Shown: in pieces, positions 4,974-22,482 of the stretch | Numbering within the stretch: the first letter of the stretch is position 1 | Layout of the letters: each line of letters begins with the position of its first letter | NCBI GenBank assembly: GCA_046329665.1 | Contig: JAXLUG010000020.1 | Location: 32,805-56,804, forward strand | DNA: 24,000 nucleotides | Reading direction: 5' to 3' | Source: Chitinophagaceae bacterium | GTDB taxonomy: Bacteria > Bacteroidota > Bacteroidia > Chitinophagales > Chitinophagaceae | Position numbers and translations under genes: made by a program | Notes under the pieces: generated by a model | The model's database searches: none | What the model saw: the letters and a program-made list of their open reading frames with translations, nothing else | What the model was told of the DNA's origin: nothing

Positions 4974-4974
4974 A

Positions 4975-5298: not shown

Positions 5299-5503
5299 TT
5301 TGTTTCGTTTCTTTTCTGAACATGCTGAACAACAGCCCGCCCATCAGTGCCCCGTAGGCTGTTGAGCGATGCCACTTCGAAGTGATCATACAGGTGCCAT
5401 TGCTGCATCCCACCTGCTGCCAGTACAAATAACCGCCCAGGGCCCCGATCAGCACACCAGCGATCGTCCATTTATTTTTCAGCACCCAATTCTTCATATT
5501 CAA
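5282..5503 (-). CDS. Small two-helix membrane protein with GCSNGTC motif (DUF6132-like)
   Basis: 73 aa reading IAGVLIGALGGYLYWQQVGCSNGTCMITS...YGALMGGLLF. Overlaps both neighbours (17 nt with trx, 26-32 nt with the upstream gene). Confidence 0.55.
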   Translation of the reverse strand: MNMKNWVLKNKWTIAGVLIGALGGYLYWQQVGCSNGTCMITSKWHRSTAYGALMGGLLFSMFRKETKQNDSKQ

Positions 5504-5729
5504 TAGTATCCGTTTCTTTTATCGTGCCGGGTCGTTGCGGTGCGTAACAGTTACCGCCTGCACAGCAAACCCCGTCTGTGAACAAAGCAAATAGTGTAAA
5601 CAAGGCCCCCAGTACTATACCGGGCACATGGTGCTCTGTAATGGATGAGGACAAAATTAAGATACCCAGCACAACCCGGATGATCTTTAATACGGTCCAG
5701 CCGCTTTTTAACCTGTCTGTCAGCACCAT
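5472..5729 (-). CDS. Small membrane protein with CCAGGNC motif (possibly a YgaP/DUF2892-like two-helix domain)
   Basis: 85 aa reading LKIIRVVLGILILSS...GIVLGALFTLFALFTDGVCCAGGNCY. First gene after an operator-bearing promoter. Confidence 0.5.
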   Translation of the reverse strand: MVLTDRLKSGWTVLKIIRVVLGILILSSSITEHHVPGIVLGALFTLFALFTDGVCCAGGNCYAPQRPGTIKETDTIEYEELGAEK

Positions 5730-5745
5730 AATTGTGTATTTGAAG

Positions 5746-5789
5746 CAAATTTCTGATTCCGGCGGTGGCCTGCGGGTGACTATTGTTAC
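5746..5789 (-). promoter_or_regulatory. Operator-promoter 1: site GTAACAATAGTCAC (5776-5789, 1 mismatch), 22 nt, then -7 box GAAATTTG (5746-5753)
   Basis: Member of the eight-site phased set. About 12 nt of predicted leader before the ATG at 5729. Confidence 0.55.
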
Positions 5790-5798
5790 AAACTGCTC

Positions 5799-6827
5799 CT
5801 AATAGCTCATTTCATCCAGCTTTACCTTTCCTTTAAAGGTCCAGAAAACAAAACTGGTGTATACGCCAACGAGCGGGGTGCCGATCAGGGCGATCAGCAG
5901 CAGTGTCTTCATGGTCCTGGGCGAAGAAGCGGCATTTTGCACGGTGATGCTGTTGGCGATATTGTTCCTGGCATACACAAGTTGCGGGAATACCTCCACG
6001 GCCACAGCGGCCAGCAGGGAGGCAATGGTGACTGCGGAACTGATAAAAGCAAAACGGTAATTGCCTTTTTTAAGCTGCCGCGGAATATTGGCAATGGCCA
6101 GTAACATTAGGGCCGGCAGCACAAAGTAAGCAGGGTTACTTCTTATCCTGTCGCTGAGATGCGGAATATATAACAACGTGTAAAGTGTGGTGAGGCTGAA
6201 TGTGACCAGGAAGAAAACGGTGAAGTTCTTTGCCAGGATGGTGAGCCTGGTGTACAGGCGGTTCTCTGTTTTCATGGCCAGGTAAATGGCGCCATGCATC
6301 ATGAACAACGCCAGGGTGGTGACAGCCACCAGTATCGAAAACGGATTAAAGAAGGTGAGCAGGTTGCCGGTGAATTCTTTCTGTTCATTGAGCGGCAGTC
6401 CCGCTGCAATATTACCAAGCATCAGGCCCAGTGACAAGGTAACCACGATACAGGCGAAGGAATAGATGAAGTCCCATGTCATGCGCCATTTTTTACCAGG
6501 CTCTTTGCTCCTGAATTCGATCGCCACCGCCCTCCATATAAGCCCGATCAGAAAGATCATGACCGGGAGGTAAAAAGCGGAGAAGATAGCCGCATAAGCA
6601 ACGGGGAAGCCGGCAAACAAGGCGCCGCCCCCGATCACCAGCCATACTTCGTTACCATCCCATACCGGGCCGATGGCATTCAGGGCAATCCGGCGGCTGG
6701 TTTCTTTGCGGAGAAAAAGATGCAGGGCCCCGGCACCCAGATCGAAACCATCCAGGATAGCATACCCTGTAATGACTGCGCCAAACACCAGGAACCATAA
6801 CGTGTTATAATCAATGCCAAGGAACAT
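5799..6827 (-). CDS. cydB: Cytochrome bd ubiquinol oxidase subunit II
   Basis: 342 aa polytopic protein. The N-terminus LWFLVFGAVITGYAILDGFDLGAG and later WDGNEVWL are CydB hallmarks. It begins 2 nt after the cydA stop. Confidence 0.9.
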   Translation of the reverse strand: MFLGIDYNTLWFLVFGAVITGYAILDGFDLGAGALHLFLRKETSRRIALNAIGPVWDGNEVWLVIGGGALFAGFPVAYAAIFSAFYLPVMIFLIGLIWRAVAIEFRSKEPGKKWRMTWDFIYSFACIVVTLSLGLMLGNIAAGLPLNEQKEFTGNLLTFFNPFSILVAVTTLALFMMHGAIYLAMKTENRLYTRLTILAKNFTVFFLVTFSLTTLYTLLYIPHLSDRIRSNPAYFVLPALMLLAIANIPRQLKKGNYRFAFISSAVTIASLLAAVAVEVFPQLVYARNNIANSITVQNAASSPRTMKTLLLIALIGTPLVGVYTSFVFWTFKGKVKLDEMSY

Positions 6828-6829
6828 AG

Positions 6830-8218
6830 TTATTGTGATGAAGTGTTCATGAATGGGTTTTGTCTTCTGCTGGTTGCGTCTTCTTCCGCCGCTGCTGCCT
6901 GCAGCACGGGGCCGTGTTTTATTTTTTTATTCAGCAGGTAAAGAAAAAGGACAAACAGCGTGGCATACACCAGGGTGAAAAGGATCAGTGATGTGAGTAC
7001 CTGTTCGGCCTTTACCGTGGCAGACAGTGCATCGGATGTACGCAGCAGGCCATACACCACCCAGGGCTGTCTTCCCATTTCTGCGGCAAACCATCCGGCC
7101 TGGTTGGCGATCTGTGGCAGCAATACCGCCCAGACAAATACGATCATCAGCCACTTTTTATCAAACAGTTTTCCTCTTCTCCATTGCCAGGCTGCATACA
7201 GGGTTAATATGATCAGTGCAATGCCAATGGCCACCATGAGGTGATAGAACTGGAATACCGCATTTACCTGTGGTGGTGTGGTATCAGCGGCAAAGGCATT
7301 CAGCCCGGTAACGGGGGCATAAAAATCACCATGAAGTAAAAAGCTTAAGCCGCCGGGGATCCGGATACCGGCCGTGTGCTGCTCTTTTTTACTGACCCAG
7401 CCCAGTATATACATATCCGCCGCACCGGTACTATCGAAATGACCTTCCATAGCCGCCATCTTGGCCGGTTGATTTTTTGCGACCCCTTCTGCACTGCGGT
7501 GACCGAGAAACAACTGTGCCAGGGAAAAAACAATTCCCACCGCCAGGGCGATCCGGAAGGAAGGTTTGGCGATCTCCAGGTGTTTCTTTTTAAGAATGTA
7601 CCAGGCATTCACACTCATCACCAGGAAGGCACCGGCAAGAAAGGCGCCCGTCCATACATGCAGGAGCCGGTCCACACTGGAAGGATTGAAAACCATCTGC
7701 CAGAAATCGGTGATCTCGGCCCGGGCCTGCATGCCTTCACCAACGATATGAAAACCGGAAGGCGTTTGCTGCCAGCTGTTGGCCACCACGATCCATACGG
7801 CGCTGAACAAGGAACCTAGGAATACCATCAGTGCCGAAAAGAAATGAACTTTCGGGCTCACCCTTTTCCAGCCAAAGAGCAGGATACCGAGGAAACCGCT
7901 TTCGAGTGCAAAAGCAAAAATGCCTTCTGCAGCAAGGGCGCTGCCGAAAATATCACCGACATACCGGGAGTAAGTGGCCCAGTTGGTGCCGAATTCAAAT
8001 TCCATGATGATGCCGGTGGCAACCCCTAACCCGAAAACAAGGGCAAAGATCCGGATCCAGAACCGGGTCATATCCTCGTACATCTTTTTCCCGGTTTTCA
8101 GGTAAAGACCTTCCATGATCACAATGATGAGCCCAAGACCGATACTTAATGGAGGATAGATGTAATGAAATGAAATGGTGAAAGCAAATTGCAGGCGGGA
8201 TAATATCTCGGTATCCAT
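6830..8218 (-). CDS. cydA: Cytochrome bd ubiquinol oxidase subunit I (short Q-loop size class, 462 aa)
   Basis: The start is taken at MDTEILSRLQFAFTISFHYIYPPLSIG (ATG 8218). The track's extra 38 aa N-terminal extension has no CydA-like sequence. GRQPWVVYGLLRT lies near the C-terminus. Confidence 0.9.
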   Translation of the reverse strand: MDTEILSRLQFAFTISFHYIYPPLSIGLGLIIVIMEGLYLKTGKKMYEDMTRFWIRIFALVFGLGVATGIIMEFEFGTNWATYSRYVGDIFGSALAAEGIFAFALESGFLGILLFGWKRVSPKVHFFSALMVFLGSLFSAVWIVVANSWQQTPSGFHIVGEGMQARAEITDFWQMVFNPSSVDRLLHVWTGAFLAGAFLVMSVNAWYILKKKHLEIAKPSFRIALAVGIVFSLAQLFLGHRSAEGVAKNQPAKMAAMEGHFDSTGAADMYILGWVSKKEQHTAGIRIPGGLSFLLHGDFYAPVTGLNAFAADTTPPQVNAVFQFYHLMVAIGIALIILTLYAAWQWRRGKLFDKKWLMIVFVWAVLLPQIANQAGWFAAEMGRQPWVVYGLLRTSDALSATVKAEQVLTSLILFTLVYATLFVLFLYLLNKKIKHGPVLQAAAAEEDATSRRQNPFMNTSSQ

Positions 8219-8295
8219 GTCAGTTGTTTCTGTAATGTTATGCGCAGCAAGGCCCGGAACACAACTGCCTTTTCCGGCAGTATCGTTTCCGGAAA

Positions 8296-8339
8296 CAAAG
8301 ATCACTGCAAAGTTCAGGCATGACGGTGACATTCATGAC
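8296..8339 (-). promoter_or_regulatory. Operator-promoter 2 (cydAB): site GTCATGAATGTCAC (8326-8339, 1 mismatch), 22 nt, then -7 box GATCTTTG (8296-8303)
   Basis: Same phasing as the other seven sites. Lies just downstream of the sqr terminator. About 70 nt of predicted leader. Confidence 0.5.
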
Positions 8340-8369
8340 AAAAAAAACGGCTGCTGAAAAGCAGCCGCT
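8340..8369 (-). terminator. Rho-independent terminator after sqr
   Basis: The minus strand reads GCGGCTGC-TTTTCA-GCAGCCG followed by TTTTTTTT (A-run 8340-8347 on the plus strand). Confidence 0.7.
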
Positions 8370-8390
8370 CAGAATAACCAAAACCAGCTT

Positions 8391-9587
8391 TTACATTTTA
8401 CCGGGCAGTATCTTATGCCAGTAAAGCCAGGGGAGCACCCTTCTTTTCAGCTGGTACATGCTCCATCTTTCCTTGCTTTGGTCAAAGGGGAAGGTTTCAA
8501 TGGGTGTATTGTTATAATCAAATTCACAAAGCACCAGCTTACCGTAACCGGTTACGACCGGGCAGCTGGTATAACCATTATAGCTTGCTTCGGGTTTCCT
8601 GCCTTCCATTACGGCCAGCAGGTTTTTAACCAGTACAGGGGCCTGTTTACGTATGGCGGCACCGGTGCGGGAGGTGGGCAGGGAAGAAGCATCGCCCAGT
8701 GAAAAGATGTTGGGATACTTCACATGCTGTAATGTGTGTTTATCAACATCCACCCAGCCGGCTGTGTTGGCCAGCGAGCTGTTCCGGATAAAATCAGGGG
8801 CACTCTGCGGCGGGGTTACATGTATCATGTCAAAATCCACCCAGTATTCTTTGTCCTTATTCTGCTCGCCAAAGCCCACAAACTTTGCCTTCTTATTCGG
8901 GCCGTCTATTTCAACCAGTTTGGTGAAGAAGTTCATCTGCACTTTATCCCGCTCTGCTACTTTCTTAAAGGTCTTTTCATATTTCTCCACCCCAAAGAGC
9001 CGGGTTCCGCCGCTCCAGTATTGGATCTCGGTCTTGTCAAATACACCCTGTTTTTTAAAATAATCGGCTGCCAGCCACATGATCTTATGCGGGGCACCGC
9101 CACATTTTACCGGTGTATTGGGGTTAGTGAACAAGGCCCTGCCCCCTTTGAATTGGCGGATGCATTCCCAGGTGTAAGGCACATCGTTCACGCTGTAGTT
9201 GGAACATACTCCATTTTTGCCCAGGGTTTCTTTCAGTCCTTTGATCTCGTTCCAGTTTAACTGGATGCCCGGTGCCACGACCAGGTATTCATAGCCCACT
9301 GTATCGCTGTTGTCCAGGGTAATGGTATTGGCTTCCGGCTGAAAGGAAACGGCTTTTTGTTTGAGCCACTTTACTTCTTTGGGCATCACGTCAGCCTCGT
9401 TATGAATGGTGTTCTTCATATTGAACACACCGGCACCCACCAGTGTCCAGGCGGGCTGGTAATAATGTTTGTCGGAGGGCTCGATAATGGCAATATCAAG
9501 TTTCCTGTTTTTGCGGAGCAGTTGTGAAGCGGTGGAGATGCCGGCATTTCCGCCGCCGACGATCACGACCTTGTGTTGGTGCAACAT
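8391..9587 (-). CDS. sqr: Sulfide:quinone oxidoreductase, type II (SQRDL-like FAD flavoprotein)
   Basis: 398 aa. N-terminal VVIVGGGNAGIS dinucleotide fold and HYYQPAWTLVGAGV, typical of type II SQR. Also GAPHKIMW and SLGDASSLPTSRTGAA. Confidence 0.8.
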   Translation of the reverse strand: MLHQHKVVIVGGGNAGISTASQLLRKNRKLDIAIIEPSDKHYYQPAWTLVGAGVFNMKNTIHNEADVMPKEVKWLKQKAVSFQPEANTITLDNSDTVGYEYLVVAPGIQLNWNEIKGLKETLGKNGVCSNYSVNDVPYTWECIRQFKGGRALFTNPNTPVKCGGAPHKIMWLAADYFKKQGVFDKTEIQYWSGGTRLFGVEKYEKTFKKVAERDKVQMNFFTKLVEIDGPNKKAKFVGFGEQNKDKEYWVDFDMIHVTPPQSAPDFIRNSSLANTAGWVDVDKHTLQHVKYPNIFSLGDASSLPTSRTGAAIRKQAPVLVKNLLAVMEGRKPEASYNGYTSCPVVTGYGKLVLCEFDYNNTPIETFPFDQSKERWSMYQLKRRVLPWLYWHKILPGKM

Positions 9588-9606
9588 AGCTGAAATGTTT
9601 ATGCAG

Positions 9607-9650
9607 CTAAGGTAGTTTCAGGAGGAAGGCATAGTGGTGATATTAGTCAC
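9607..9650 (-). promoter_or_regulatory. Operator-promoter 3 (sqr): exact site GTGACTAATATCAC (9637-9650), 22 nt, then -7 box TACCTTAG (9607-9614)
   Basis: Exact GTGA-N6-TCAC palindrome. About 15 nt of predicted leader to the ATG at 9587. Confidence 0.6.
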
Positions 9651-9717
9651 CATGATCCGGTTTATTTTGAAAATCATGCCCCCGTTCCGGTCCGCATGAT
9701 AACAGTCAGTTTTTTTT

Positions 9718-9761
9718 GTGACTTATGTCATTCCCGTCCCTTCCCCCCGCCTTGAAATTTG
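9718..9761 (+). promoter_or_regulatory. Operator-promoter 4 (PDO-rhodanese A): site GTGACTTATGTCAT (9718-9731, 1 mismatch), 22 nt, then -7 box GAAATTTG (9754-9761)
   Basis: Divergent from promoter 3 in the same intergenic region. Predicted leader of about 115 nt to the ATG at 9882. Confidence 0.5.
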
Positions 9762-9881
9762 TTTGCTATAACTGGTGTATAAAAAAAATAAGCTTATGAA
9801 TACTTCCTGTACATCCCGCTGTCCCTGAAAGACCAGCCGCCTTTTACCCAAACCTGATTTATTCATACTAAAAAAAATTTT

Positions 9882-11306
9882 ATGAAAATAGAACAGATCT
9901 ATACCGGTTGTCTTGCCGAAGCCGCCTACTACATCGAAAGTGATGGTGAAGCGGCAATCATTGATCCCTTACGGGAAACAAAACCATACATGGAGCGGGC
10001 GGAACGGAACGGGGCCAGGATCAAATATATTCTTGAAACACACTTTCATGCTGATTTCGTCAGCGGCCATATTGACCTGGCAAAGAAAACAGGCGCCATG
10101 ATCGTCTTCGGTCCGACCGCTGCTCCCGGATATGATGCACATGTGGCCAGGGATGGCGAGGAACTGACCCTGGGAAAAGTCAAGTTCAGGGTACTGCATA
10201 CACCGGGCCATACAATGGAATCGACCACTTATTTACTGATGGATGAAAACGGGAAGGAGAACTCCATTTTCACCGGCGACACCTTATTCATCGGGGATGT
10301 GGGAAGGCCCGACCTGGTTCAAAAGGTAAAGGCGGAAGTGACACCACAACTGCTGGCCGGTCACTTATTTGATTCACTCCGCCACAAGATCATGCGGCTG
10401 CCGGATGATGTTATTGTATATCCGGGCCATGGTGCCGGCAGTGCCTGCGGCAAGAATATGAGCCGGGAGACAACCGATACCCTGGGCCACCAGAAGAAAG
10501 TGAATTACGCCCTGCGGGCCGGTATGACGAAGGAGGAATTCATCAAAGAAGTGACGGACGGGCTGGTGGAGCCCCCGCAATATTTTCCCTTTAATGTGCT
10601 GATGAACCTGAAAGGAGGCATTGACAGTATTGATGCCATCATCGAAAGAGGAAGCAAACCGCTTACGGCCCGTGAATTTCAAACGGCCTGGGAGAGCCTG
10701 GAAACCCTGGTGATCGATACAAGGAGCAAGGATGCCTTTGCCGCCGAACACATACCCGGTTCGGTCTTCATCGGTATCGATGACAATTTTGCCCCCTGGG
10801 CCGGCACCCTGATCACCAATTTGAAGCAGCCCATTCTTTTTATAGCAGAGGAGGGAAGGGAAGAAGAAGTGATCACCCGGCTGGCCAGAGTGGGATATGA
10901 TAACACAATGGGTTATCTGAAAGGCAGTATCTGGGCCTGGAAAGAAGCCGGTTTTGAAACCAGCTCGCTGGAAGAGACCGATGCGGAATCATTTGCTGCC
11001 CTTTACGAGAGCGGGATCGAAAAGATCAACCTGCTGGATGCAAGAAGAAAAAGCGAATATGATTCGGAACACCTGATGGGGGCCGAAAATTTCCCGCTTG
11101 ACTTTATCAACCAAAATATGGCGCAGCTGGACCGGAATAAAAAATATTATATCCATTGTGCGGGGGGGTACCGTTCTGTGATCATGTGCTCTATCCTTCG
11201 GGCGAGAGGATATGAGAAGGTGGTGAACATACGGGGCGGGTACAAATCCCTCAGCCAGACCGGCCTGAGAAAAACCAAGTACGTGGAGCCCACTACAATG
11301 CTCTGA
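9882..11306 (+). CDS. Persulfide dioxygenase (MBL fold, ETHE1-like) fused to a Cys-less rhodanese-like domain and a catalytic C-terminal rhodanese (CstB-like), paralog A
   Basis: 474 aa. ETHFHADFVSGH metal motif, HTPGHT and GDTLFIGDVGRPDL. The middle rhodanese-like domain has no Cys in its loop (FIAEEGREEEV). The C-terminal active-site loop is YYIHCAGGYRS. Confidence 0.8.
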   Translation: MKIEQIYTGCLAEAAYYIESDGEAAIIDPLRETKPYMERAERNGARIKYILETHFHADFVSGHIDLAKKTGAMIVFGPTAAPGYDAHVARDGEELTLGKVKFRVLHTPGHTMESTTYLLMDENGKENSIFTGDTLFIGDVGRPDLVQKVKAEVTPQLLAGHLFDSLRHKIMRLPDDVIVYPGHGAGSACGKNMSRETTDTLGHQKKVNYALRAGMTKEEFIKEVTDGLVEPPQYFPFNVLMNLKGGIDSIDAIIERGSKPLTAREFQTAWESLETLVIDTRSKDAFAAEHIPGSVFIGIDDNFAPWAGTLITNLKQPILFIAEEGREEEVITRLARVGYDNTMGYLKGSIWAWKEAGFETSSLEETDAESFAALYESGIEKINLLDARRKSEYDSEHLMGAENFPLDFINQNMAQLDRNKKYYIHCAGGYRSVIMCSILRARGYEKVVNIRGGYKSLSQTGLRKTKYVEPTTML

Positions 11307-11331
11307 TCCGTCAGCGTAAATAATAGGTAAG

Positions 11332-11360
11332 GCCGGCCCCGTTGCGGGCCGGCTTTTTTT
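11332..11360 (+). terminator. Rho-independent terminator after PDO-rhodanese A
   Basis: GCCGGCCC (11332-11339) pairs with GGGCCGGC (11346-11353), followed by T7 (11354-11360). Confidence 0.75.
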
Positions 11361-11404
11361 GTGATAACCGTCACAGGGCATTCCGGGCAATACGGGTACA
11401 TTTG
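11361..11404 (+). promoter_or_regulatory. Operator-promoter 5 (thioredoxin 2): exact site GTGATAACCGTCAC (11361-11374; full TGTGA-N6-TCACA with flanks), 22 nt, then perfect -7 box TACATTTG (11397-11404)
   Basis: The best match to both consensus elements. About 15 nt of predicted leader to the ATG at 11424. Confidence 0.65.
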
Positions 11405-11423
11405 TTGTTTAATAAAGTAAACT

Positions 11424-11792
11424 ATGGCTACAATAAAAATGACCACGCAGGATTTTAAAGACAAGGTCTTTAATTATGAAACAGAGCAGGACTGGAAATA
11501 CCAGGGAGCGCTTCCTGCTATTATCGACTTTTATGCTGACTGGTGTGGCCCCTGCCGTATGGTAGCCCCGATTCTGGAAGAATTATCCAACGAATATGAT
11601 GGTAAGCTGGTGATCTATAAAGTGGATACGGATGCTGAACAGGAGCTTTCCGCTGTGTTTGGTATCCGCAGCATCCCTACCATGCTCTTTATCGGCGCAG
11701 ATGGCGAGCCGATGATGCAGCCGGGCGCCTTGCCAAAGCATGTGCTTCGCCAGGTGATCGAAGAAAAGATGCTTGTAAAAAAGGCCGGTTAA
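11424..11792 (+). CDS. Thioredoxin (WCGPC), 122 aa
   Basis: IIDFYADWCGPCRMVAPILEEL and ...IRSIPTMLFI. Confidence 0.9.
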   Translation: MATIKMTTQDFKDKVFNYETEQDWKYQGALPAIIDFYADWCGPCRMVAPILEELSNEYDGKLVIYKVDTDAEQELSAVFGIRSIPTMLFIGADGEPMMQPGALPKHVLRQVIEEKMLVKKAG

Positions 11793-11808
11793 CACAACCG
11801 GCCTTTTT
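11777..11808. terminator. Bidirectional terminator between convergent trx and YeeE-like genes
   Basis: A6, then GGCCGGTT (11783-11790), loop AACAC, AACCGGCC (11796-11803), then T5. Confidence 0.7.
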
Positions 11809-11831
11809 GATCAGCTAATGCAGTCCTGCTG

Positions 11832-12377
11832 TTAATGCGGCAGGCTGCTTCTGAACCGGCCGTATACCCAGGTTCCGATAATAGCGCTGAATAAGGTGAC
11901 GATCACAGCCAGCGCACCGGTACCGATCTGGGCATACAACGGGCCCGGGCAGGCGCCGGTCAATGCCCAGCCTGTTCCGAAGATCAGGCCGCCATATACC
12001 TGGCCTTTATTGAATTTTTTTGGTTCGAGCCTGATCTCTTCGCCGTCAAGGGACTTTAGTTTGAATCGTTTGATCAGGAATACACTGATGATCCCGACCA
12101 CCACGGCAGAACCGATGACACCAAACATATGGAAACTCTGCAGCCGGAACATTTCCTGGATACGGAACCAGGAGATCACCTGCGATTTCACCAGGATGAT
12201 ACCAAACAACATCCCGGCCACGGCATATTTTATTTTTGCAACAAGTGGCTTATCAAGCGTGGAATGATTCACACACATGGCATGTTCGGAACGTACTTCG
12301 TAATCTGTATTTACCTGCTGGGCCACGAAGGGCTTTTCACTGGCAGCAATTTCCGGGCTTATATTTTTAACTGACAT
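11832..12377 (-). CDS. YeeE/YedE-family sulfur-compound transporter half (second of a pair)
   Basis: FGIILVKSQVISWFRIQEMFRLQSFHMFGVIGSAV and the GWALTGACPGP motif. The N-terminal 40 aa may be an over-extension; an alternative start is M34. Confidence 0.7.
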   Translation of the reverse strand: MSVKNISPEIAASEKPFVAQQVNTDYEVRSEHAMCVNHSTLDKPLVAKIKYAVAGMLFGIILVKSQVISWFRIQEMFRLQSFHMFGVIGSAVVVGIISVFLIKRFKLKSLDGEEIRLEPKKFNKGQVYGGLIFGTGWALTGACPGPLYAQIGTGALAVIVTLFSAIIGTWVYGRFRSSLPH

Positions 12378-12392
12378 AGTAAAGGATAAAAG

Positions 12393-12956
12393 TTAGAGAT
12401 GTAAAATATAGGGCAGCACCAGGTTGGCGGCGGCAAACCCGCCTGCCATAAAACAACAGGTGGCTACCAGGGAAGGCCATTGAAGGTTGCTTAGCCCCAT
12501 GATTGAATGTCCTGAAGTACACCCGCCGGCATACCGGGTGCCGAAGCCCACAAGAAAGCCACCCGCCACCATCAACACAACCCCTCTGGGTGTCAGCAGG
12601 GCCTGCCACGAAAAAAGATCACCCGGTACCAGCCCCTCGTAATGCGTAATTCCATAACCATTCAGTTCGGCCACCAGCTTCGGGTTTACTTTGATGGGAT
12701 TAGGGTCAGCCAGGAACTTTGCGGCCAGTATCCCGCCTATAATGATACCTCCGGCGAAAAATAGATTCCAGACCTCTTTTTTCCAGTCATATTTGAAAAA
12801 AGGAACATTGGAAGGTGCGCAGGCGGCGCAAACATGCCGGAGAGAGGAAGAAATACCAAACGATTTATTACCAAGGAGAAGCAGAAGCGGTACCGTTAAC
12901 CCGATCAATGGCCCGGCTACGTACCAGGGCCAGGGTTGTCTGAGCCATTCAAGCAT
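12393..12956 (-). CDS. YeeE/YedE-family sulfur-compound transporter half (first of a pair)
   Basis: The start is taken at MLEWLRQPWPWYVAGPLIGL (ATG 12956), not the track's 13148. The RYAGGCTSGH motif is present. Confidence 0.75.
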   Translation of the reverse strand: MLEWLRQPWPWYVAGPLIGLTVPLLLLLGNKSFGISSSLRHVCAACAPSNVPFFKYDWKKEVWNLFFAGGIIIGGILAAKFLADPNPIKVNPKLVAELNGYGITHYEGLVPGDLFSWQALLTPRGVVLMVAGGFLVGFGTRYAGGCTSGHSIMGLSNLQWPSLVATCCFMAGGFAAANLVLPYILHL

Positions 12957-12969
12957 AGTTGATTTTTTA

Positions 12970-13013
12970 CAAAGGTCAATATACGGAAAGCGGGGGCAGG
13001 TGACTTTTGTTAC
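12970..13013 (-). promoter_or_regulatory. Operator-promoter 6 (internal, YeeE pair): site GTAACAAAAGTCAC (13000-13013, 1 mismatch), 22 nt, then -7 box GACCTTTG (12970-12977)
   Basis: Same phasing as the other sites. The operator overlaps the stop codon (13010-13012) of the upstream barrel gene. About 9 nt of predicted leader. Confidence 0.5.
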
Positions 13014-13735
13014 CGGGAAAAAGAAGAATTTTTCCCGAACCGGAGATTCAACTGGATATATAGCTGGTTGCGGTGGAATGTCCGGGTATTGCTTTTTTGC
13101 AGTACCCACTGGTAACCTGCGTCGAGGCTGGTGCCCTGGTGTACCCATTGTAAGCCGCCATAGATCCGTTCCTGGTCGAAAAGGACGGGATACTTGTCTT
13201 TTTTTACCATCACTTCATTATAGAAGGTGGCGGACAAGGCCTGCTTGTTTTTTACTGAAAAAAGCGGAACCGAGAGGCTGTTCTGCAACCGCAGTCTTAC
13301 CTGGGTAAAGTGCAGCGGATCGTTGTATTGGATAAAACGTTCTTCCACCAGCAGCCGGTTTTTATTTTTAACCGACCGGTGGCCGATCGTTTTCAATACA
13401 CCGCCGGTGAGGCGGATCTCTTCTGTTTCCCTCAGATCGCCTTTTGCGTCTGCAATATCATTGTTTCGGAGCCAGGCAAATGGGGAAAGGAGAAGCGTCC
13501 AGTTTTCCGGAAGTTGGTAATACACCCACAGGCGGGCAAGGTTTCCCAACGGGTAATGAAAAATATTCTTATCGCCGTTCCGGTAGTTCGCCTGGCTTCG
13601 GTGCAGCAGATCCAGGCCGGCCGACCAGTGTTTATCCAGCAGGACGGTGGTATTCACCCTTACCCAGCATTCATGTCTTGTTTGTGAAGCGGCAAGAAGG
13701 GGGAGTACCGTAACCAGGAGCAGCCATCGTTTCAT
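13010..13735 (-). CDS. Putative outer-membrane beta-barrel protein (DUF2490-like) with signal peptide
   Basis: Signal peptide MKRWLLLVTVLPLLAASQ. Alternating-polarity strands, RLLVEERF, and a C-terminal ...YIQLNLRF aromatic end region. The start overlaps the rhodanese stop by 1 nt. Confidence 0.5.
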   Translation of the reverse strand: MKRWLLLVTVLPLLAASQTRHECWVRVNTTVLLDKHWSAGLDLLHRSQANYRNGDKNIFHYPLGNLARLWVYYQLPENWTLLLSPFAWLRNNDIADAKGDLRETEEIRLTGGVLKTIGHRSVKNKNRLLVEERFIQYNDPLHFTQVRLRLQNSLSVPLFSVKNKQALSATFYNEVMVKKDKYPVLFDQERIYGGLQWVHQGTSLDAGYQWVLQKSNTRTFHRNQLYIQLNLRFGKNSSFSR

Positions 13736-14046
13736 CAGGCTATTTTATGCTGAAGACGGGTCCAGGGCCCCCCATTATACACTTCAATACCGGCTGACCG
13801 GAGGATGTTCCTGGCCATACCGCTCCGGGCGCCGCTCCGGCAGACCGTGATCACCGGTTTATTGATCTTTTTCAGCTCTGCGACTTTGCTCCGGATATTA
13901 TCCAGCGGAAAATTCTTCGATCCTTTGATGTGCCCGCTTTTATATTCTGCCGCAGAACGTACATCAACAATGATGGCGCCTTTACTTACCAGTTCCCTGA
14001 GGTCGACAGCCGTGCCGCCAAAGATCTTCTTCAGAAATCCTATCAT
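13735..14046 (-). CDS. Single-domain rhodanese sulfurtransferase
   Basis: 103 aa with IIVDVRSAAEYKSGHIKGS and the active-site loop VCRSGARS. Confidence 0.85.
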   Translation of the reverse strand: MIGFLKKIFGGTAVDLRELVSKGAIIVDVRSAAEYKSGHIKGSKNFPLDNIRSKVAELKKINKPVITVCRSGARSGMARNILRSAGIEVYNGGPWTRLQHKIA

Positions 14047-14052
14047 GATTGT

Positions 14053-14334
14053 TTAGTTTAAGAGTGATTGCATATCGGTTAAGCCGCCGCCGTTATAGAT
14101 ATCGGTCAGCCCGCTTTGCCGGAGCAGTTGTACCGCCATACCGCTTCTGTTGCCGCTCCGGCAATAGAGTACTACCGGTTTATTGATGGCTTTGAGGTCG
14201 CCGGATTTACCATATATATCTTCCAGCGGGATGTTCATGGCGCCGGGTATGTGTTCCATATCAAATTCCCAGGGGCTCCTTACATCCACGATCAGTGTGT
14301 TCGGATCATTTACGAGTTGTTTAATCGTATTCAT
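14053..14334 (-). CDS. Single-domain rhodanese sulfurtransferase
   Basis: 93 aa with IVDVRSPWEFDMEHIPGA and the active-site loop YCRSGNRS. Confidence 0.85.
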   Translation of the reverse strand: MNTIKQLVNDPNTLIVDVRSPWEFDMEHIPGAMNIPLEDIYGKSGDLKAINKPVVLYCRSGNRSGMAVQLLRQSGLTDIYNGGGLTDMQSLLN

Positions 14335-14409
14335 AGAAAAAAATTTTTTAAAGGAAGGGCCGGGGTTGAACCCGGCGCAAGGAATCGTTGTTCTTAGCCG
14401 GCTGCTGGT

Positions 14410-15828
14410 TTAAAGTAGGGTGGAAGGGCATACATAATCAGTAAGGGTAAATTTCCCGCTCTCCTTTATTGCCTTGAACCCTCCTTTTACATCAATCAGT
14501 TTGTCGTACCCCCTTGCCCGGAGGATCGACGTGAAGATCATGGAGCGGTAACCACCGGCACAATGAACATAATAGGTTTTGTTTTTATCGAGCTGTGCCA
14601 TGCTGTCGTTGATGAAATCAAGCGGGGCATTCTCCGCATCGGGGATATGCTCGCTCTGGAACTCACTTTTTTTACGGACGTCCAGGATATTCACTTCCTG
14701 TTTTTTCATCAGTCCTGCCAGTTCATCAGCGCTAACGGAAAGGATATGGTCTGTTTCTTTTCCGGCCGCCTTCCAGGCGCTGAAACCCCCTTTCAGGTAC
14801 CCGATCGTATGATCATACCCCACTCTGGCCAAACGGGTGATCACTTCTTCTTCACGGCCCTCATCGGTGATCAGCAGTATTTCCTGTTTGATATCAGGGA
14901 TCATCGCCCCTACCCAGGGGGCAAACTGTCCGTCGATGCCAATATTGACAGCGTTCGGGATAAATCCTTCAGCGAAGGTTTGCGGTGCTCTTGTATCAAG
15001 TACCAGGGCACCGGTTTCGTTGGCGGCGGCTTCAAAAGCATCGGGGCTTAAGGCATGCTGGCCTCTTTCAAGCACCTTGTCAATGCTTTCATATCCCTGG
15101 ATGTTCAGCATTACATTCAGCGGAAAATAGGCCGGGGGCGCCACAAGCCCGGTGGTTACTTCCCTGATGAATTCCTCTTTGGTCATATCAGCCCGGAGTG
15201 CATAGTTGGTTTCCTTCTGGTGACCAAGTGTATCCGTTGTTTCCTTACTCATGTTCTTGCCACAGGCACTTCCGGCACCGTGGGCCGGATACACGATAAT
15301 ATCATCTGCCAGCGGCATGATCTTACTGCGCAAAGAATCAAAAAGATAACCGGCGAGTTTATCCTGGGTGAGATCGGCCACTACTTTCTGGGCAAGATCA
15401 GGTCTGCCTACATCGCCTATAAAGAGTGTATCACCTGAAAACAGCCCTGCTGCTTTCCCGTTTTCATCGCGGAGCAGGAAACAGCTGCTTTCCATGGTAT
15501 GACCGGGCGTATGTAATACCTGCAGTGTAACATGGCCTACTTTGAATTCCTGCCCATCCGTGGCAATAATGGCATCAAAAGCCGGTCTGGCACCCGGGCC
15601 GTATACGATCGGGGCACCGGTTTTTTTGGACAGGTCAAGATGACCGCTGACAAAATCGGCGTGAAAGTGGGTTTCAAAGACATATTTAATCCGGGCATTA
15701 TTACTTTCTGCTTTATGGAGGTAGGGCTCCACTTCCCGGAGCGGATCGATGATCACGGCTTCACCATTGCTTTCGATGTAATAGGCTCCTTGTGCAAGGC
15801 AGCCGGTGTAGATCTGTTCAACTTTCAT
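14410..15828 (-). CDS. Persulfide dioxygenase-rhodanese fusion (CstB-like), paralog B
   Basis: 472 aa, colinear with paralog A (roughly two-thirds identical by eye). ETHFHADFVSGH, HGAGSACGKNMS, Cys-less middle loop LITDEGREEEV, and C-terminal loop YYVHCAGGYRS. Confidence 0.8.
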   Translation of the reverse strand: MKVEQIYTGCLAQGAYYIESNGEAVIIDPLREVEPYLHKAESNNARIKYVFETHFHADFVSGHLDLSKKTGAPIVYGPGARPAFDAIIATDGQEFKVGHVTLQVLHTPGHTMESSCFLLRDENGKAAGLFSGDTLFIGDVGRPDLAQKVVADLTQDKLAGYLFDSLRSKIMPLADDIIVYPAHGAGSACGKNMSKETTDTLGHQKETNYALRADMTKEEFIREVTTGLVAPPAYFPLNVMLNIQGYESIDKVLERGQHALSPDAFEAAANETGALVLDTRAPQTFAEGFIPNAVNIGIDGQFAPWVGAMIPDIKQEILLITDEGREEEVITRLARVGYDHTIGYLKGGFSAWKAAGKETDHILSVSADELAGLMKKQEVNILDVRKKSEFQSEHIPDAENAPLDFINDSMAQLDKNKTYYVHCAGGYRSMIFTSILRARGYDKLIDVKGGFKAIKESGKFTLTDYVCPSTLL

Positions 15829-15845
15829 CTTTGATTAATTTGAAG

Positions 15846-15889
15846 CAAATTTCTGTCTGTGTGCAGAACCTGACAGTGACTAGCATCAC
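15846..15889 (-). promoter_or_regulatory. Operator-promoter 7 (PDO-rhodanese B operon): exact site GTGATGCTAGTCAC (15876-15889), 22 nt, then -7 box GAAATTTG (15846-15853)
   Basis: Exact palindrome. Shares an identical 18-mer core with promoter 1. About 13 nt of predicted leader. Confidence 0.65.
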
Positions 15890-15903
15890 AATCACCGGGG
15901 GCG

Positions 15904-16710
15904 TCAGCGGAGGAGGATTTCCTTTGTGATGATATAAATACCCATTACGAGGATGAACCACCCAAATCCTCTTTTCAGTGATTTGCCGGGTATTTTTTCA
16001 GCGAAACGGCTGCCGATAAAAATGCCAAGGATGGCAAGCCCGGTGAAGACAAGCAGCAGCACCCAGTTATAACTGAACTGTTTCAGGCTGAATAAAAATC
16101 CAAAGAGTGAATTGATAGCGATGATGAGCAGGGAAGTGCCTACGGCCTTTTTCATTGCCAGGCCCAGGAACACCACCAGTGAAGGGATGATGAGAAAACC
16201 ACCGCCGGCTCCCAGTAACCCTGTCAACGTACCTATCAGCAAGCCGAGGAATATAAGCGGGATCACTTTGCTTGCCGGGTGTGAGCTGGTTTCGTTTTGT
16301 TCAGGGACAGCATCCCTTTTACTTCTTATCATGGTAACGGAAGCAGCCACCATCAGGATGGCAAACACCACCATCAGCAGGATGTCCTTTGAAACGGGCT
16401 TGCTGCCGATATAAAATACAGTCTCTGGTATAGCAGGCAGAATATAATGACGGGCAATGAAGATGGAGAAAACAGAGGGAATACCGAATTCGGTTATAGC
16501 CCTGAAGTCGATCAGGTTCTTTGAATAAGCCCTTATCCCGCCAACAAGGCTGGTAAGTCCAACGATGAAGAGTGAACTGGCTGTGGCTTCCAGCGGGTGT
16601 ACGCCCATCAGGTATACCAGTACGGGTACGGTAAGGATAGATCCGCCGCTGCCGACCAGGCCCAGTGAGATGCCGATGAGTACAGAAGCCAGATAGCCGA
16701 GGATCTCCAT
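15904..16710 (-). CDS. TauE/SafE-family (TSUP) sulfite/organosulfonate exporter
   Basis: 268 aa, about 8 TM helices, with repeated GxGGGxxxxP-like motifs (LVGSGGSILTVP, LLGAGGGFLIIP). Confidence 0.8.
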   Translation of the reverse strand: MEILGYLASVLIGISLGLVGSGGSILTVPVLVYLMGVHPLEATASSLFIVGLTSLVGGIRAYSKNLIDFRAITEFGIPSVFSIFIARHYILPAIPETVFYIGSKPVSKDILLMVVFAILMVAASVTMIRSKRDAVPEQNETSSHPASKVIPLIFLGLLIGTLTGLLGAGGGFLIIPSLVVFLGLAMKKAVGTSLLIIAINSLFGFLFSLKQFSYNWVLLLVFTGLAILGIFIGSRFAEKIPGKSLKRGFGWFILVMGIYIITKEILLR

Positions 16711-16723
16711 GTATTATTTTTTG

Positions 16724-16767
16724 CAAGATTAGCGACAGTCTTTATCCTGCATTGTGACACAAATCAC
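16724..16767 (-). promoter_or_regulatory. Operator-promoter 8 (tauE): exact site GTGATTTGTGTCAC (16754-16767), 22 nt, then -7 box TAATCTTG (16724-16731)
   Basis: Exact palindrome placed between the regulator stop (16778) and the tauE ATG (16710). Confidence 0.6.
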
Positions 16768-16777
16768 GGCCGGTAAA

Positions 16778-17395
16778 TCATACCAGTTCGATCATGTTCC
16801 GGTGAAGCTTTACCAGGTTTCGCTGTTCCATCTTTTTTAAGAGTCTTGAAATCACCTCCCGGGAGCTGTTCAGGTCATCTGCGATCTGCTGATGGGAAAG
16901 CTCGATCGTTTTTTTACCGCTTACACCGGCATGGCGTTTCAGGTAAAACTCCAGTCTTTCGTCCATGTTACGGAAAGCAATATTGTCCACCACCGCCAGC
17001 AGCTCATCAAACCGTGAACGATAGGTTTGTATCACGAACTGGTACCAGCTTTTGTACTTGTTCATCAGGTCATCCATTAACTGGATGGGGATCATCAGCA
17101 CTTCGGTATCTTCTTCGGCCTTGGCCATTACTTCACTGGTCTGCGATTGAAGGGCGCAGATCATGGAAACCGCACAGGCCTGGCCGGGGCCGAGATAATA
17201 CATGAGGAATTCACCGCCTTCTGCATTTTCCCGGTATATTTTTATTCTTCCTTCCAGCACCAGCACGGCTGATTTAATGTATTGCCCTGTCCGCATAATG
17301 ATATCACCGGCATTAAAGCTTCGCTGGATCGCTTCTTTTTCGATCAGTTCAACCAGGTGGGGTTCGAATTGCGGGAATAATTGTTTCCAGTTCAT
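16778..17395 (-). CDS. Crp/Fnr-family transcriptional regulator; candidate regulator of the sulfur island
   Basis: 205 aa. Beta-roll effector domain (GDIIMRTGQYIKSAVLVLEGRIKIYR) and HTH LSHQQIADDLNSSREVISRLLKKM. Exactly two Cys (C73, C80). No N-terminal FNR-type Cys cluster. Confidence 0.8.
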   Translation of the reverse strand: MNWKQLFPQFEPHLVELIEKEAIQRSFNAGDIIMRTGQYIKSAVLVLEGRIKIYRENAEGGEFLMYYLGPGQACAVSMICALQSQTSEVMAKAEEDTEVLMIPIQLMDDLMNKYKSWYQFVIQTYRSRFDELLAVVDNIAFRNMDERLEFYLKRHAGVSGKKTIELSHQQIADDLNSSREVISRLLKKMEQRNLVKLHRNMIELV

Positions 17396-20337: not shown

Positions 20338-21345
20338 TGTTTTTTGCATAAACCTGTGAATTGGAATATTTTTAACGCCGGTTGGGGTAAAATATTGCAC
20401 CTCAGAGAAGTTTTACCTGCCGGAATTGCGAATATAACCACTTTAAGTAAACAGGGCTACGCAGAAATACTTTTTTTACCCTGTAAAAACCCGTCCGCTG
20501 GTTTTGAAACCAGGAGGATAAATGCCTTTTCGCAAGGCTGATTTTCCGGGCTCTTATTATTAATATCAAGCTGCATTTACAGGCGAACGGATGCTCCGAA
20601 TTTTTTGCAACCGGTAATGGTACCAGGCTGGTGCTACAAAATCATGAGTCTGCTGACCGATCTTCCTTCTCTCGCCAGTATACCTGCTTACAGGATAGTT
20701 GCTGGCGGAAGCAAAAAGGGCCCCGTACAAATGACTGCAAAGAAAATGCTGTGAGATCGGCAGAAGGGGGCATCGAAAGATTCAGGGACGTTCCTTTTTA
20801 GCCGGCCGTTTACGCCGGTCCGAAAATGAACACAAGGAGTCAATACGGGGAGAAGGATGATACCTTAAAAAGCCATCAGTTGTGTAACCATCACACAGGG
20901 CAACCGGTCTGGTAACCCCGGAATGGGGGAGCCGTGTAGCAGGGGCGATATTATTGCCGGGCATATCTATAATATGCTCCTGAAAGCGATTGCTGGGAAA
21001 GGTAAAAAATAAGCGAGTGCTAATAAATCCTGTATTATTCAGAGGCCAAATGAAACTGTATGATATTCATCAGGAATATCGGCGCAGGGCAGAAGAGTAA
21101 TAGTTAAGTCTTATGCGTTCATTATAACCGCATTAATTATGCACAGAAAAGAATTTTTTTACAATAAATTTTAAATTAGGACGTTTTTCCTGAAATTTGC
21201 CACCCGGGAAAGGTGTGTATGGTATTACCCAACCCCCGGGAAATCAGAAAAAAAGACAATTTTTTGGTTTCAGTGTAAATTTTTCTATTTTAGTTTTGTT
21301 TTTAGTCAAAAGCTCTATATTTACACCATTATTAAAAACTTTCTA

Positions 21346-22482
21346 ATGAGACCAACTGCTTTAAAACTAACTGCCGCAATCCTGCTCTTTTGTGGTATTA
21401 CATCCGCTGTACAAGCGCAGAAATTAAACGTTGTTACTACTGCTGTTCCTTTTCTTCGTATTTCACCCGATGCCCGCTCTGGTGGTATGGGAGATATTGG
21501 CATTGCCACTTCTCCTGATGCCTATTCTGGCATTTGGAATGGTGCGAAAACATCCTTCAGCGATACAAAAGGTGCTATCGGAGCTACCTACACTCCGTGG
21601 CTGCATTATGTGGTAAATGATGTATTCCTTGCTGACCTTGCAGGGTATTACAAATTCGCAGATAACCAGGCCCTTTTCGGATCAGTTCGTTATTTCAGCC
21701 TTGGTGATATCCAGTTCACTGACGCCCTTGGTAATGACCTTACCTCTTTCCGCCCCCGTGAGTTCGGTATCGATGTTGGATATTCAAGGAAACTGAATTC
21801 AAAGCATGCTATCGGTATCGCTTTGAAATATATCAACTCAAACCTCGCCAGCGGTTTCAATGCAGGCGGTACTACTTACAAAACTGGTAGTGCTGTAGCT
21901 GCTGACCTTTCTTACGCTGGTAACTCTATCAAAGCTTCAGGCGATGGTTGGAGATGGGGTGCTGTTCTGTCAAACCTCGGTTCTAAAATATCTTATACTG
22001 ATAACGCTGACGCAAAAGATTTCATCCCGGCTAACTTAGGTCTTGGTGTTAACTATACTAACAAGTTCAACAACGTTAACCAGATCTCTTTCGGTCTTGA
22101 AATCAACAAACTGCTTGTTCCCACTCCTCCTTCAGATTCAGCCGGCCTGGTTGAGTACAGAAATAAAAGTGTGATCGGCAGCTGGTTCAGCTCTTTCGGT
22201 GATGCTCCTGATGGCTTCAGCGAAGAGATCAAAGAATTCCAGGTTTCTCTGGGTGCAGAATACTGGTACAACAACCAGTTTGCTCTCCGTGCCGGTTATT
22301 TCTACGAGAACAAAGACAAAGGCAACCGCCGCTATTTCACAGCAGGTGTTGGTCTTAAATACAACATCTTCGGTTTCAACTTTGCTTACCTGGTTCCTTC
22401 AGGAAGTGGTGTAAACCGCAACCCGCTGTCAAACACGCTGCGTTTCTCCATCCTGTTTGATTTCGACGGCAAAAAGAAATAA
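21346..22482 (+). CDS. porV: Type IX secretion outer-membrane protein PorV (LptO)
   Basis: Signal peptide, then AVPFLRISPDARSGGMGDIGIATSPD, the characteristic PorV N-terminal motif. Beta-barrel with a C-terminal aromatic-rich end. Confidence 0.8.
   Translation: MRPTALKLTAAILLFCGITSAVQAQKLNVVTTAVPFLRISPDARSGGMGDIGIATSPDAYSGIWNGAKTSFSDTKGAIGATYTPWLHYVVNDVFLADLAGYYKFADNQALFGSVRYFSLGDIQFTDALGNDLTSFRPREFGIDVGYSRKLNSKHAIGIALKYINSNLASGFNAGGTTYKTGSAVAADLSYAGNSIKASGDGWRWGAVLSNLGSKISYTDNADAKDFIPANLGLGVNYTNKFNNVNQISFGLEINKLLVPTPPSDSAGLVEYRNKSVIGSWFSSFGDAPDGFSEEIKEFQVSLGAEYWYNNQFALRAGYFYENKDKGNRRYFTAGVGLKYNIFGFNFAYLVPSGSGVNRNPLSNTLRFSILFDFDGKKK

Follow-up and report, generated by a model that had tools for sequence, protein, structure and literature searches.

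The window, by which we mean the whole 24-kb stretch of Chitinophagaceae DNA analyzed here, carries at 16778-17395 on its minus strand a gene for a 205-residue Crp/Fnr-family regulator, a putative sensor-activator that very likely controls the sulfide-detoxification genes around it. The signal would likely be derived from sulfide, and we give somewhat better than an even chance to thiol chemistry at a single cysteine, C74, as the sensing event; a bridge between C74 and the only other cysteine of the protein, C80, is a more doubtful proposition. Taken as a whole, the reading that we favor, with modest confidence, is that of a dedicated reactive-sulfur sensor-activator on a Crp/Fnr fold, thiol-based and centered on C74 with C80 optional, a function that we infer from the content of the regulon and from the gene neighborhood.

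Membership in the superfamily is supported by both domains of the protein. Pfam places cNMP_binding (PF00027) at residues 25-114 (E 1.2e-13, 51.3 bits against a cut-off of 27.5) and a Crp-type helix-turn-helix (HTH) at residues 150-203 (HTH_Crp_2, PF13545, E 1.9e-9, 37.7 bits against 27; Crp HTH, PF00325, E 1.3e-5, 25.2 bits against 21). An AlphaFold2 (AF2) model, for which 61 diverse homologs served as input, has a mean predicted local distance difference test score (pLDDT) of 94 and exhibits a beta-roll and the CRP architecture, with a long C-helix at residues 115-142. Foldseek run on this model returns the crystal structure 3dv8 at the top, followed by T. thermophilus CAP, CRP and NtcA, with a probability of 1.00 to CRP, CAP and NtcA. 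Identity with CRP, FNR or NtcA was considered and rejected. A cAMP receptor is not indicated, since the defining residues are missing in the BLASTP alignment to E. coli CRP (no Arg at the position of R82; E72 aligns with S77, and T127/S128 with L132/L133) and the NCBIfam CRP score, 47.2, is far under the cut-off of 266. Nor is an FNR-type O2 sensor, because the N-terminal cysteine cluster of FNR is not present in the sequence, as the earlier note on this DNA had correctly observed, C74 and C80 being the sole cysteines, and because the FNR score of 32.3 is under its cut-off of 228. NtcA was rejected on a score of 47.7 against a cut-off of 244.95 and on operators of the form GTGA-N6-TCAC instead of GTA-N8-TAC. 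The regulator would appear, then, to belong only to the Crp/Fnr superfamily and to stand outside CRP, FNR, NtcA, CooA and every persulfide-sensor family. The family to which it does belong is large, with about 7,900 close matches and 1,791 cluster representatives at E <= 1e-10, and a profile search detects NtcA (8.6e-22), DNR (1.5e-13), CooA (about 1e-11) and FNR (about 5e-11) as remote relatives; the closest characterized relatives by profile are the ligand-binding proteins NtcA and CRP.

The predicted targets are marked by operators. The palindrome GTGA-N6-TCAC is present in perfect form 4 times in the window, against 0.25 expected, and with one mismatch allowed it is found at 18 sites against 6.5 expected; neither count was reached by any of 100 shuffles. 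Eight sites, starting at 5776, 8326, 9637, 9718, 11361, 13000, 15876 and 16754, are intergenic and promoter-proximal, and at every one of these 8 promoters an nAnnTTTG box follows exactly 22 nt after the operator in the orientation of the gene. Hence the GTGA/TCAC operators that the earlier note had described at eight promoters are both enriched over shuffled sequence and held in a fixed relation to a promoter element. The same relation is found in related genomes: 80 orthologous loci contain 238 perfect sites (about 4.5 per 24 kb), 167 of which are 20-200 bp upstream of tauE (69), pdo2 (41), yeeE (23, the gene being yeeE1), sqr (21) or trx (9) and share a single phase, with TAnnTTTG beginning 36 nt past the first base of the site. 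The sigma-A box of Flavobacterium, TAnnTTTG, extends from -12 to -5 (PMC9723704), and given this placement the 22-nt spacing should put the center of the operator near -41.5, the position of a class II activator. The sequences thus strongly indicate that a dimer of the regulator binds TGTGA-N6-TCACA sites near -41.5 at eight promoters and works by class II activation; GTGATAACCGTCAC is the operator DNA predicted for it. A separate -33 element is not evident at these promoters, and the promoter-proximal half-site fills that space.

The operators point strongly to a regulon made up of tauE, two pdo-rhodanese fusions, rhodaneses, yeeE, two thioredoxins, sqr, cytochrome bd and small genes of unassigned family. 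Its first gene, next to the regulator, encodes a TauE/SafE membrane protein, a putative sulfite exporter (15904-16710, minus strand; Pfam TauE, E 1.5e-44), behind the perfect operator GTGATTTGTGTCAC at 16754-16767 (minus strand) with the -7 box TAATCTTG at 16724-16731. Another perfect operator (15876-15889, minus strand; GAAATTTG after 22 nt) precedes the persulfide dioxygenase-rhodanese fusion pdo2 (14410-15828, minus strand; Pfam Lactamase_B and two Rhodanese stretches). Two single-domain rhodaneses follow on the minus strand within 13735-14334 (14053-14334 and 13735-14046; Pfam Rhodanese, and PspE-like in NCBIfam though under the family cut-off), then a DUF2490 protein in the middle of the cluster (13010-13735, minus strand; E 6.7e-16). 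The split YeeE/YedE sulfur transporter (11832-12956, minus strand, as 12393-12956 and 11832-12377; Pfam Sulf_transp / DUF6691), whose start at 12956 was placed from homologs and from the operator, has the one-mismatch site GTAACAAAAGTCAC at 13000-13013 (minus strand), with GACCTTTG after 22 nt.

Beyond it, on the plus strand, a thioredoxin gene (11424-11792; Pfam Thioredoxin, E 4.5e-24) is served by TGTGATAACCGTCACA at 11361-11374, a perfect 16-bp palindrome of the CRP type with its -7 box TACATTTG at 11397-11404, and the second persulfide dioxygenase-rhodanese fusion, pdo1 (9882-11306; Pfam Lactamase_B and Rhodanese), by a one-mismatch site at 9718-9731 with GAAATTTG after 22 nt. The remaining operators are all on the minus strand. 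The sulfide:quinone oxidoreductase gene sqr (8391-9587, minus strand; Pyr_redox_2, and the NCBIfam type III SQR model at E 2.7e-72, under the family cut-off) has a perfect one at 9637-9650, followed by TACCTTAG after 22 nt. A one-mismatch site at 8326-8339, with GATCTTTG after 22 nt, precedes the two open reading frames at 5799-8218 (minus strand), whose translations resemble CydA/CydB sequences and which we take to be the putative cydA and cydB of a cytochrome bd oxidase. The listed 500-residue cydA frame probably starts too early, with the likely true start near 8218, and the operator is about 114 nt upstream of that start. Cytochrome bd is a sulfide-insensitive oxidase, and the operator in front of cydAB suggests that the cell turns on sulfide-resistant respiration together with sulfide oxidation. 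Finally, a one-mismatch site at 5776-5789 (GAAATTTG after 22 nt) stands before a distal operon of orf85, thioredoxin and DUF983 (4515-5729, minus strand), a trio that recurs in related loci. The 85-residue product of orf85 (5472-5729, minus strand) has its own operator and no Pfam or NCBIfam match, and may be an unrecognized member of the sulfide regulon; the DUF983 protein (4515-4973, minus strand) contains two CxxC motifs. Within the whole cluster, 4515-17395, the Crp/Fnr protein is the sole regulator. No operator precedes its gene, which begins 10 bp beyond murF, and for these reasons the regulator is probably made constitutively and controlled post-translationally.

Which protein reads these operators can be judged from co-variation between the recognition helix and the sites. 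That helix, SREVISRLL (S178-L186; 16838-16864, minus strand), had been singled out earlier for its CRP-like R-E-x-x-x-R spacing, and the BLASTP alignment bears this out, with R179, E180 and R184 opposite R180, E181 and R185 of E. coli CRP (mature numbering). Across 61 aligned family sequences (the window protein and 60 representatives), R179 is kept in 61 and R184 in 60, while position 180 is split between Glu (44) and Val (16). Members with E180 (L081, L091, L181, L095 and L141) are accompanied by GTGA-N6-TCAC operators, and those with V180 (helix SRVV[IV]SRLL; L087, L106 and L142) by GTAAC-N4-GTTAC sites before yeeE, trx, tauE and pdo, at 6982-6995 and 9205-9218 in L087, at 5504, 6600 and 7469 in L106, and at 5699 and 7463 in L142. 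In L082, where position 180 is Ala, the half-sites are mixed. Ebright et al. reportedly found in 1984 that the substitutions E181V, E181L and E181K in E. coli CRP all give the same G-to-A change of specificity at base pair 7. The pairing of V180 with GTAAC-N4-GTTAC would be the natural counterpart of the E181V specificity change. Because the operator type tracks residue 180 across distant genomes, the family is predicted to bind these operators, and its DNA recognition can be considered established as firmly as sequence analysis allows. In two of the V180 loci, a paralog of the regulator that shares 38-40% identity with the window protein also follows the first copy at a distance of about 4 kb (about 10322-10861 in L106 and about 10030-10566 in L142).

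The association with sulfur genes is equally a matter of comparison between genomes. The order gldJ-murF-crp-tauE-pdo-rhodanese-yeeE is kept in about 70 Chitinophagaceae genomes. Where the orthologous loci have enough downstream sequence, crp is directly followed by tauE in 67 of 69 and sulfur genes are present in all 69; on the other side, murF directly precedes the regulator, 10 bp away, in 74 of 75 loci, with gldJ upstream. The culturable Terrimonas pollutisoli (L078) and Terrimonas sp. R1 (L076) are among the Chitinophagaceae that have the locus. The regulator itself is 81-91% identical (median 86%) to its 80 Chitinophagaceae orthologs, against medians of 66% for tauE and 71% for murF. Given this conserved order with murF and gldJ, the core must be regarded as a chromosomal locus carrying a variable sqr/pdo1/cyd extension, and the idea of a mobile island was rejected, which makes the earlier label "island-linked" doubtful. 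Each of the pdo paralogs has its own operator, pdo2 in the conserved core and pdo1 in the variable part. In a wider sample of 80 diverse metagenomic loci, whose regulators are 38-89% identical to the window protein, one or more sulfur genes are within 6 kb in 57, and in 41 of the 54 loci that are at least 6 kb long. Among those without the listed sulfur genes, two have divergent rhodaneses, two have DoxX, and in the rest the regulator is found among housekeeping genes. In two orphan loci, L127 (5623-6018) and L166 (5566-5958), a DoxX/MauE-family membrane protein stands before the regulator and a hybrid two-component system after it, in the places of tauE/pdo. All told, there are more than 130 loci in which the family is accompanied by the operators and by sulfur genes.

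The two cysteines of the window protein, C74 (codon 17174-17176) and C80 (codon 17156-17158), are both within GQACAVSMICALQ. It had been claimed that there are two cysteines only, in the cAMP-binding part of the protein, which is so, and that they are C73 and C80, seven residues apart, which needs correction, since the actual spacing is six. In the BLASTP alignment, their counterparts in CRP are residues of the phosphate-binding cassette, about I70/G71 for C74 and about L75/F76 for C80. The cassette helix (codons C74-Q83; 17147-17176, minus strand), assigned from the CRP alignment and from DSSP on the AF2 model, spans residues 75-83, with C74 as its N-cap and C80 inside it.

The conservation of these two residues is very different. 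In the 80 Chitinophagaceae orthologs there is no distinction to be made: all 80 have exactly two cysteines, C74 and C80, so that the expected co-conservation near sqr/pdo holds within this group. It does not extend to the family: of 146 scorable representatives at 50% identity, 143 have C74 and 86 (59%) have C80. Likewise, the 61 aligned sequences have C74 in 59 and C80 in 42, and the 80 metagenomic loci have C74 in 80 and C80 in 76. C74 is present in all 160 fetched loci, and position 74 is never Ser or Ala in any of the four samples (61, 146, 80 and 80 sequences). Position 80 or 81 holds a second cysteine in 104 of the 146 representatives (71%), whereas 39 have none in the helix and 17 have C74 as the only cysteine of the protein; at the other extreme, 23 of the 61 aligned sequences have three clustered cysteines, C74/C80/C81. 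On this distribution, C74 can be taken as the signature residue of the family, and the C74-C80 pair would not be the conserved sensing unit but rather a near-invariant residue with an optional partner (C80 here, C81 elsewhere).

The exceptions are instructive. Four single-cysteine members keep sulfur neighbors and, where checked, the operator. P0132 adjoins tauE; P0153 adjoins tauE and has the operator TGTGACTCTTGTCACA; L095 has tauE-pdo-yeeE; and P0207 is accompanied by an SQR 52% identical to that of the window and by a YgaP-like protein, with GTGACTTCTGTCAC followed by TAAATTTG after 22 nt. The other three metagenomic loci that lack C80 are likewise flanked by sulfur genes. Conversely, sulfide-oxidation neighbors were not found at the three representatives that lack C74: P0167 has a P-type ATPase and an ArsR-type regulator for neighbors, P0170 HTTM/DUF1800/DUF1501, and P0245 a MOSC protein. 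The contig of a separate sequence, P0176, is 989 bp long and shows no neighbors. The sulfur context appears, then, to track C74 and not C80, in cases that are few and all in one direction. Since single-cysteine members keep that context, a C74-C80 polysulfide bridge cannot be the general mechanism.

A relative with a solved structure extends the picture to other bacteria. The closest solved structure to the regulator is PDB 3dv8 (EUBREC_1222, from Eubacterium rectale), at 26% identity and at E values of 9.3e-23 with the single sequence and 5.5e-42 with the family profile. This is a structural-genomics protein from a firmicute anaerobe without sqr or pdo, and we found no published function for it, yet it retains both the C-x5-C motif and the R-E...R helix. 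The clade of 3dv8 (Lachnospiraceae metagenome contigs L176-L178, genes 7001-10591) adjoins thioredoxin, ferredoxin and a 564-residue Pyr_redox_2/Pyr_redox_dim/Rhodanese fusion, the architecture of which matches that of the CoA-persulfide/polysulfide reductases (CoA-disulfide-reductase-rhodanese). A candidate operator also occurs there. It is the palindrome GTGATAACATCAC, 13 bp in length with one base fewer in the spacer than the Bacteroidota sites have, and 22 nt separate it from the TATAAT box that follows. With such neighbors in anaerobic Lachnospiraceae, the association of the regulator with reactive-sulfur enzymes crosses both phyla and oxygen lifestyles.

The mechanism that we favor would begin with sulfide-derived sulfane sulfur, either persulfide or polysulfide, as the signal. 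C74 would read it at the N-terminus of the cassette helix, in the anion site that holds the phosphate of cAMP in CRP; because C74 caps this helix, the helix dipole should favor the thiolate, making C74 presumably reactive. Sulfane sulfur would persulfidate (S-sulfhydrate) C74, and the modified residue would remodel the cassette and the C-helix into the DNA-binding form by the same allosteric switch that ligand binding operates in the relatives. In 2-Cys members, including the window protein, C80 may then resolve C74 by joining it in a di-, tri- or tetrasulfide within the molecule, so that C80 (C81 in other members) would serve as an optional resolving partner and not as part of the sensor core. 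The original proposal was that the cysteine pair itself senses sulfane sulfur through a bridge of this kind. Such a bridge may still form in the window protein, but the 17 members with C74 alone remove the pair as the general sensing unit.

Several points weigh against the favored reading or against its more elaborate form. About 13 of the 54 long metagenomic loci have no adjacent sulfur gene. The contextual argument for C74 over C80 comes from just 3 C74-less and 4 single-cysteine cases. An invariant cysteine could equally be a contact for a metal, a heme or a ligand. The geometry is also unhelpful to a bridge: in an ideal helix, from which the spacing was estimated, residues i and i+6 are about 9.8 A apart at Calpha and about 10.7 A at Cbeta, with the side chains of C74 and C80 on different faces. 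In reduced CstR, the Sgamma-Sgamma distance is 7.0-8.6 A (PMC8643695), and since the estimated spacing exceeds this, a C74-C80 bridge would need local unwinding of the N-terminus of the helix. Unwinding is plausible as a switch, though the geometry is not preorganized for the bridge.

There are also alternatives in which C74 is not modified at all. The cassette pocket could be occupied non-covalently, as it is by cAMP in CRP or by 2-oxoglutarate in NtcA, by a small sulfur anion or a persulfide of low molecular weight (HS-, sulfite, thiosulfate, or the persulfide of CoA or another thiol), with C74 as a mere contact and with the regulon and DNA binding unchanged. We rate this improbable, though deserving of some weight. 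The fold is a ligand-binding module, and the nearest characterized relatives by profile, NtcA and CRP, do bind ligands; the anion site is partly retained, with S87 (the position of CRP S83) in 52 of 61 sequences and G71 in 55 of 61; and the most constant target is tauE, a putative sulfite exporter. However, the anion-binding Arg of CRP (R82) is missing, and a residue that only makes contact should tolerate Ser, Thr or Ala, which is difficult to reconcile with Cys in 143 of 146 representatives and with three exceptions that are devoid of sulfur context. The second cysteine at 80 or 81 in 71% of members also fits thiol chemistry better. The same invariance might be explained by a cofactor, with C74 ligating a heme (as Cys75 does in ferric CooA), a metal ion or an Fe-S cluster, and H2S sensed by ligand exchange. 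Crp/Fnr proteins with heme (CooA, DNR) and with Fe-S (FNR) do exist and were detected here as remote relatives, the C74/C80/C81 cluster is present in 23 of 61 sequences, and a three-cysteine [2Fe-2S] sulfide sensor, NreB, was recently described (PMC13478379). Nevertheless, we consider a cofactor unlikely. The window protein has two cysteines only and 17 family members have one, the cassette contains no conserved His or Met partner in the 61 sequences, and a cluster bridging the subunits is made improbable by the distance between the cAMP sites in the architecture of the CRP dimer. Moreover, CooA, a remote match at about 1e-11, has heme ligands (an N-terminal Pro and His77/Cys75) in place of the cassette helix, whereas in the regulator model that helix is intact and no conserved His is near C74.

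A different objection accepts the thiol and questions the signal. The protein could be a general thiol-disulfide switch for oxidative or low-oxygen conditions, like Lactobacillus FLP or FixK2, with the sulfur genes and cytochrome bd belonging to a stimulon for micro-oxic or redox conditions. The predicted regulon does include cytochrome bd and two thioredoxins, a plain disulfide could form from the cysteine pair, and one study reports that sulfide oxidation causes disulfide stress (PMC9163753). Against this, the conserved core of targets is tauE, pdo-rhodanese, rhodaneses and yeeE, not oxidases or peroxidases; an intramolecular disulfide is impossible in the single-cysteine members; and the relatives in strictly anaerobic gut Lachnospiraceae adjoin the CoA-disulfide-reductase-rhodanese fusion, an enzyme of the persulfide type. 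A redox switch of this sort seems to us no likelier than a cofactor. There is, finally, the possibility raised in the earlier note that the true binder of the GTGA/TCAC operators is another protein of the window, the Crp/Fnr-like cNMP protein at 2380-2943, leaving the protein at 16778-17395 to regulate something else. The presence of a second such protein in the same window is what recommends it. The 2380-2943 protein, however, has no Crp HTH Pfam match, its C-terminal helix, QVSLSRIR, is without R-E...R, and it is residue 180 of the 16778-17395 family that the operator type follows, in a family that travels with the operators and sulfur genes. We regard this possibility as extremely remote.

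Persulfidation of C74 in a Crp/Fnr activator, the reading that we retain, combines features that are familiar separately. Like E. coli CRP, the protein has a beta-roll, a C-helix and an HTH, the R-E-x-x-x-R triad, TGTGA-N6-TCACA half-sites and a predicted operator center near -41.5. Unlike CRP, it carries cysteines in the cassette in place of the cAMP-binding residues, and its predicted regulon is devoted to sulfide detoxification and not to catabolite control. With FNR, CooA and NtcA it shares the superfamily and a sensor domain that controls the positioning of the HTH. In known systems, CstR (CsoR family), SqrR/BigR (ArsR family) and FisR (a sigma-54 activator) control sqr, pdo/CstB-type dioxygenase-rhodanese, rhodaneses, TauE, YeeE-like transporters and CoA persulfide reductase (PMC13467558; PMC8643695). 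Judged from the operator positions, the targets here are of the same kinds, and sensing in those proteins is cysteine-based, as is proposed here. The differences are of three sorts. The fold is Crp/Fnr and neither CsoR nor ArsR, and there is no sigma-54 or AAA+ module as in FisR; the operator geometry is that of an activator, unlike the CstR and SqrR repressors; and, unlike all three, there is one conserved cysteine with an optional second, both in one short helix of one subunit and not across subunits. In this last respect, the better parallel is with the 1-Cys/2-Cys thiol sensors (OhrR and the MarR-family sulfane-sulfur responders), which also have an invariant cysteine and an optional, positionally flexible resolving cysteine. 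Single-cysteine persulfidation is reported to regulate MarR, OhrR, MgrA, AdpA and LasR. Those sensors are mostly repressors with broader oxidant responses, whereas the regulator described here has another fold, a cysteine in a cNMP-type cassette and a predicted regulon dedicated to sulfide.

According to a review of August 2026, most known reactive-sulfur sensors belong to the CsoR, ArsR and Fis/sigma-54 superfamilies, and the global Crp of A. baumannii is persulfidated as one of many proteome targets (PMC13467558). We found no Crp/Fnr reactive-sulfur regulator, or any such regulator for Bacteroidota, in the full-text literature searched, a body of work in which subscription journals are largely outside coverage. 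A CRP-like motif at cydAB/psrABC of Chlorobaculum (bioRxiv 10.1101/172254) was considered as the same system and set aside, the motif being different and spacer-less, with no regulator identified. A bolder interpretation, offered tentatively, is that the family constitutes a fourth, structurally distinct class of dedicated bacterial reactive-sulfur sensors, widespread in Bacteroidota and reaching gut Lachnospiraceae, in which the C74 persulfide would be a tethered anionic mimic of the cAMP phosphate and would turn the promoter on rather than relieve repression. On this view, a post-translational sulfur modification would set off the allostery that is typical of cyclic-nucleotide domains. As to the rest of the window, no Rfam match was obtained in its 24 kb, and about 950 bp at 20400-21346, between a gldJ-like gene and porV, contain no open reading frame of at least 80 codons.

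The regulator would be a sensory variant within the Crp/Fnr superfamily, frequent in Bacteroidota and seemingly represented in gut Firmicutes as well. If the favored reading is true, it would explain how sqr/pdo sulfide detoxification and sulfide-resistant respiration are controlled in a major environmental and wastewater phylum, and it would give a function both to thousands of proteins labeled only as Crp/Fnr family regulators and to the orphan crystal structure 3dv8. It would add a sulfide sensor of the activator type whose fold differs from that of the sigma-54 activator FisR, and a natural reuse of the cAMP cassette for thiol chemistry. In practical terms, the compact pair of activator and operator might serve as a sulfide biosensor.

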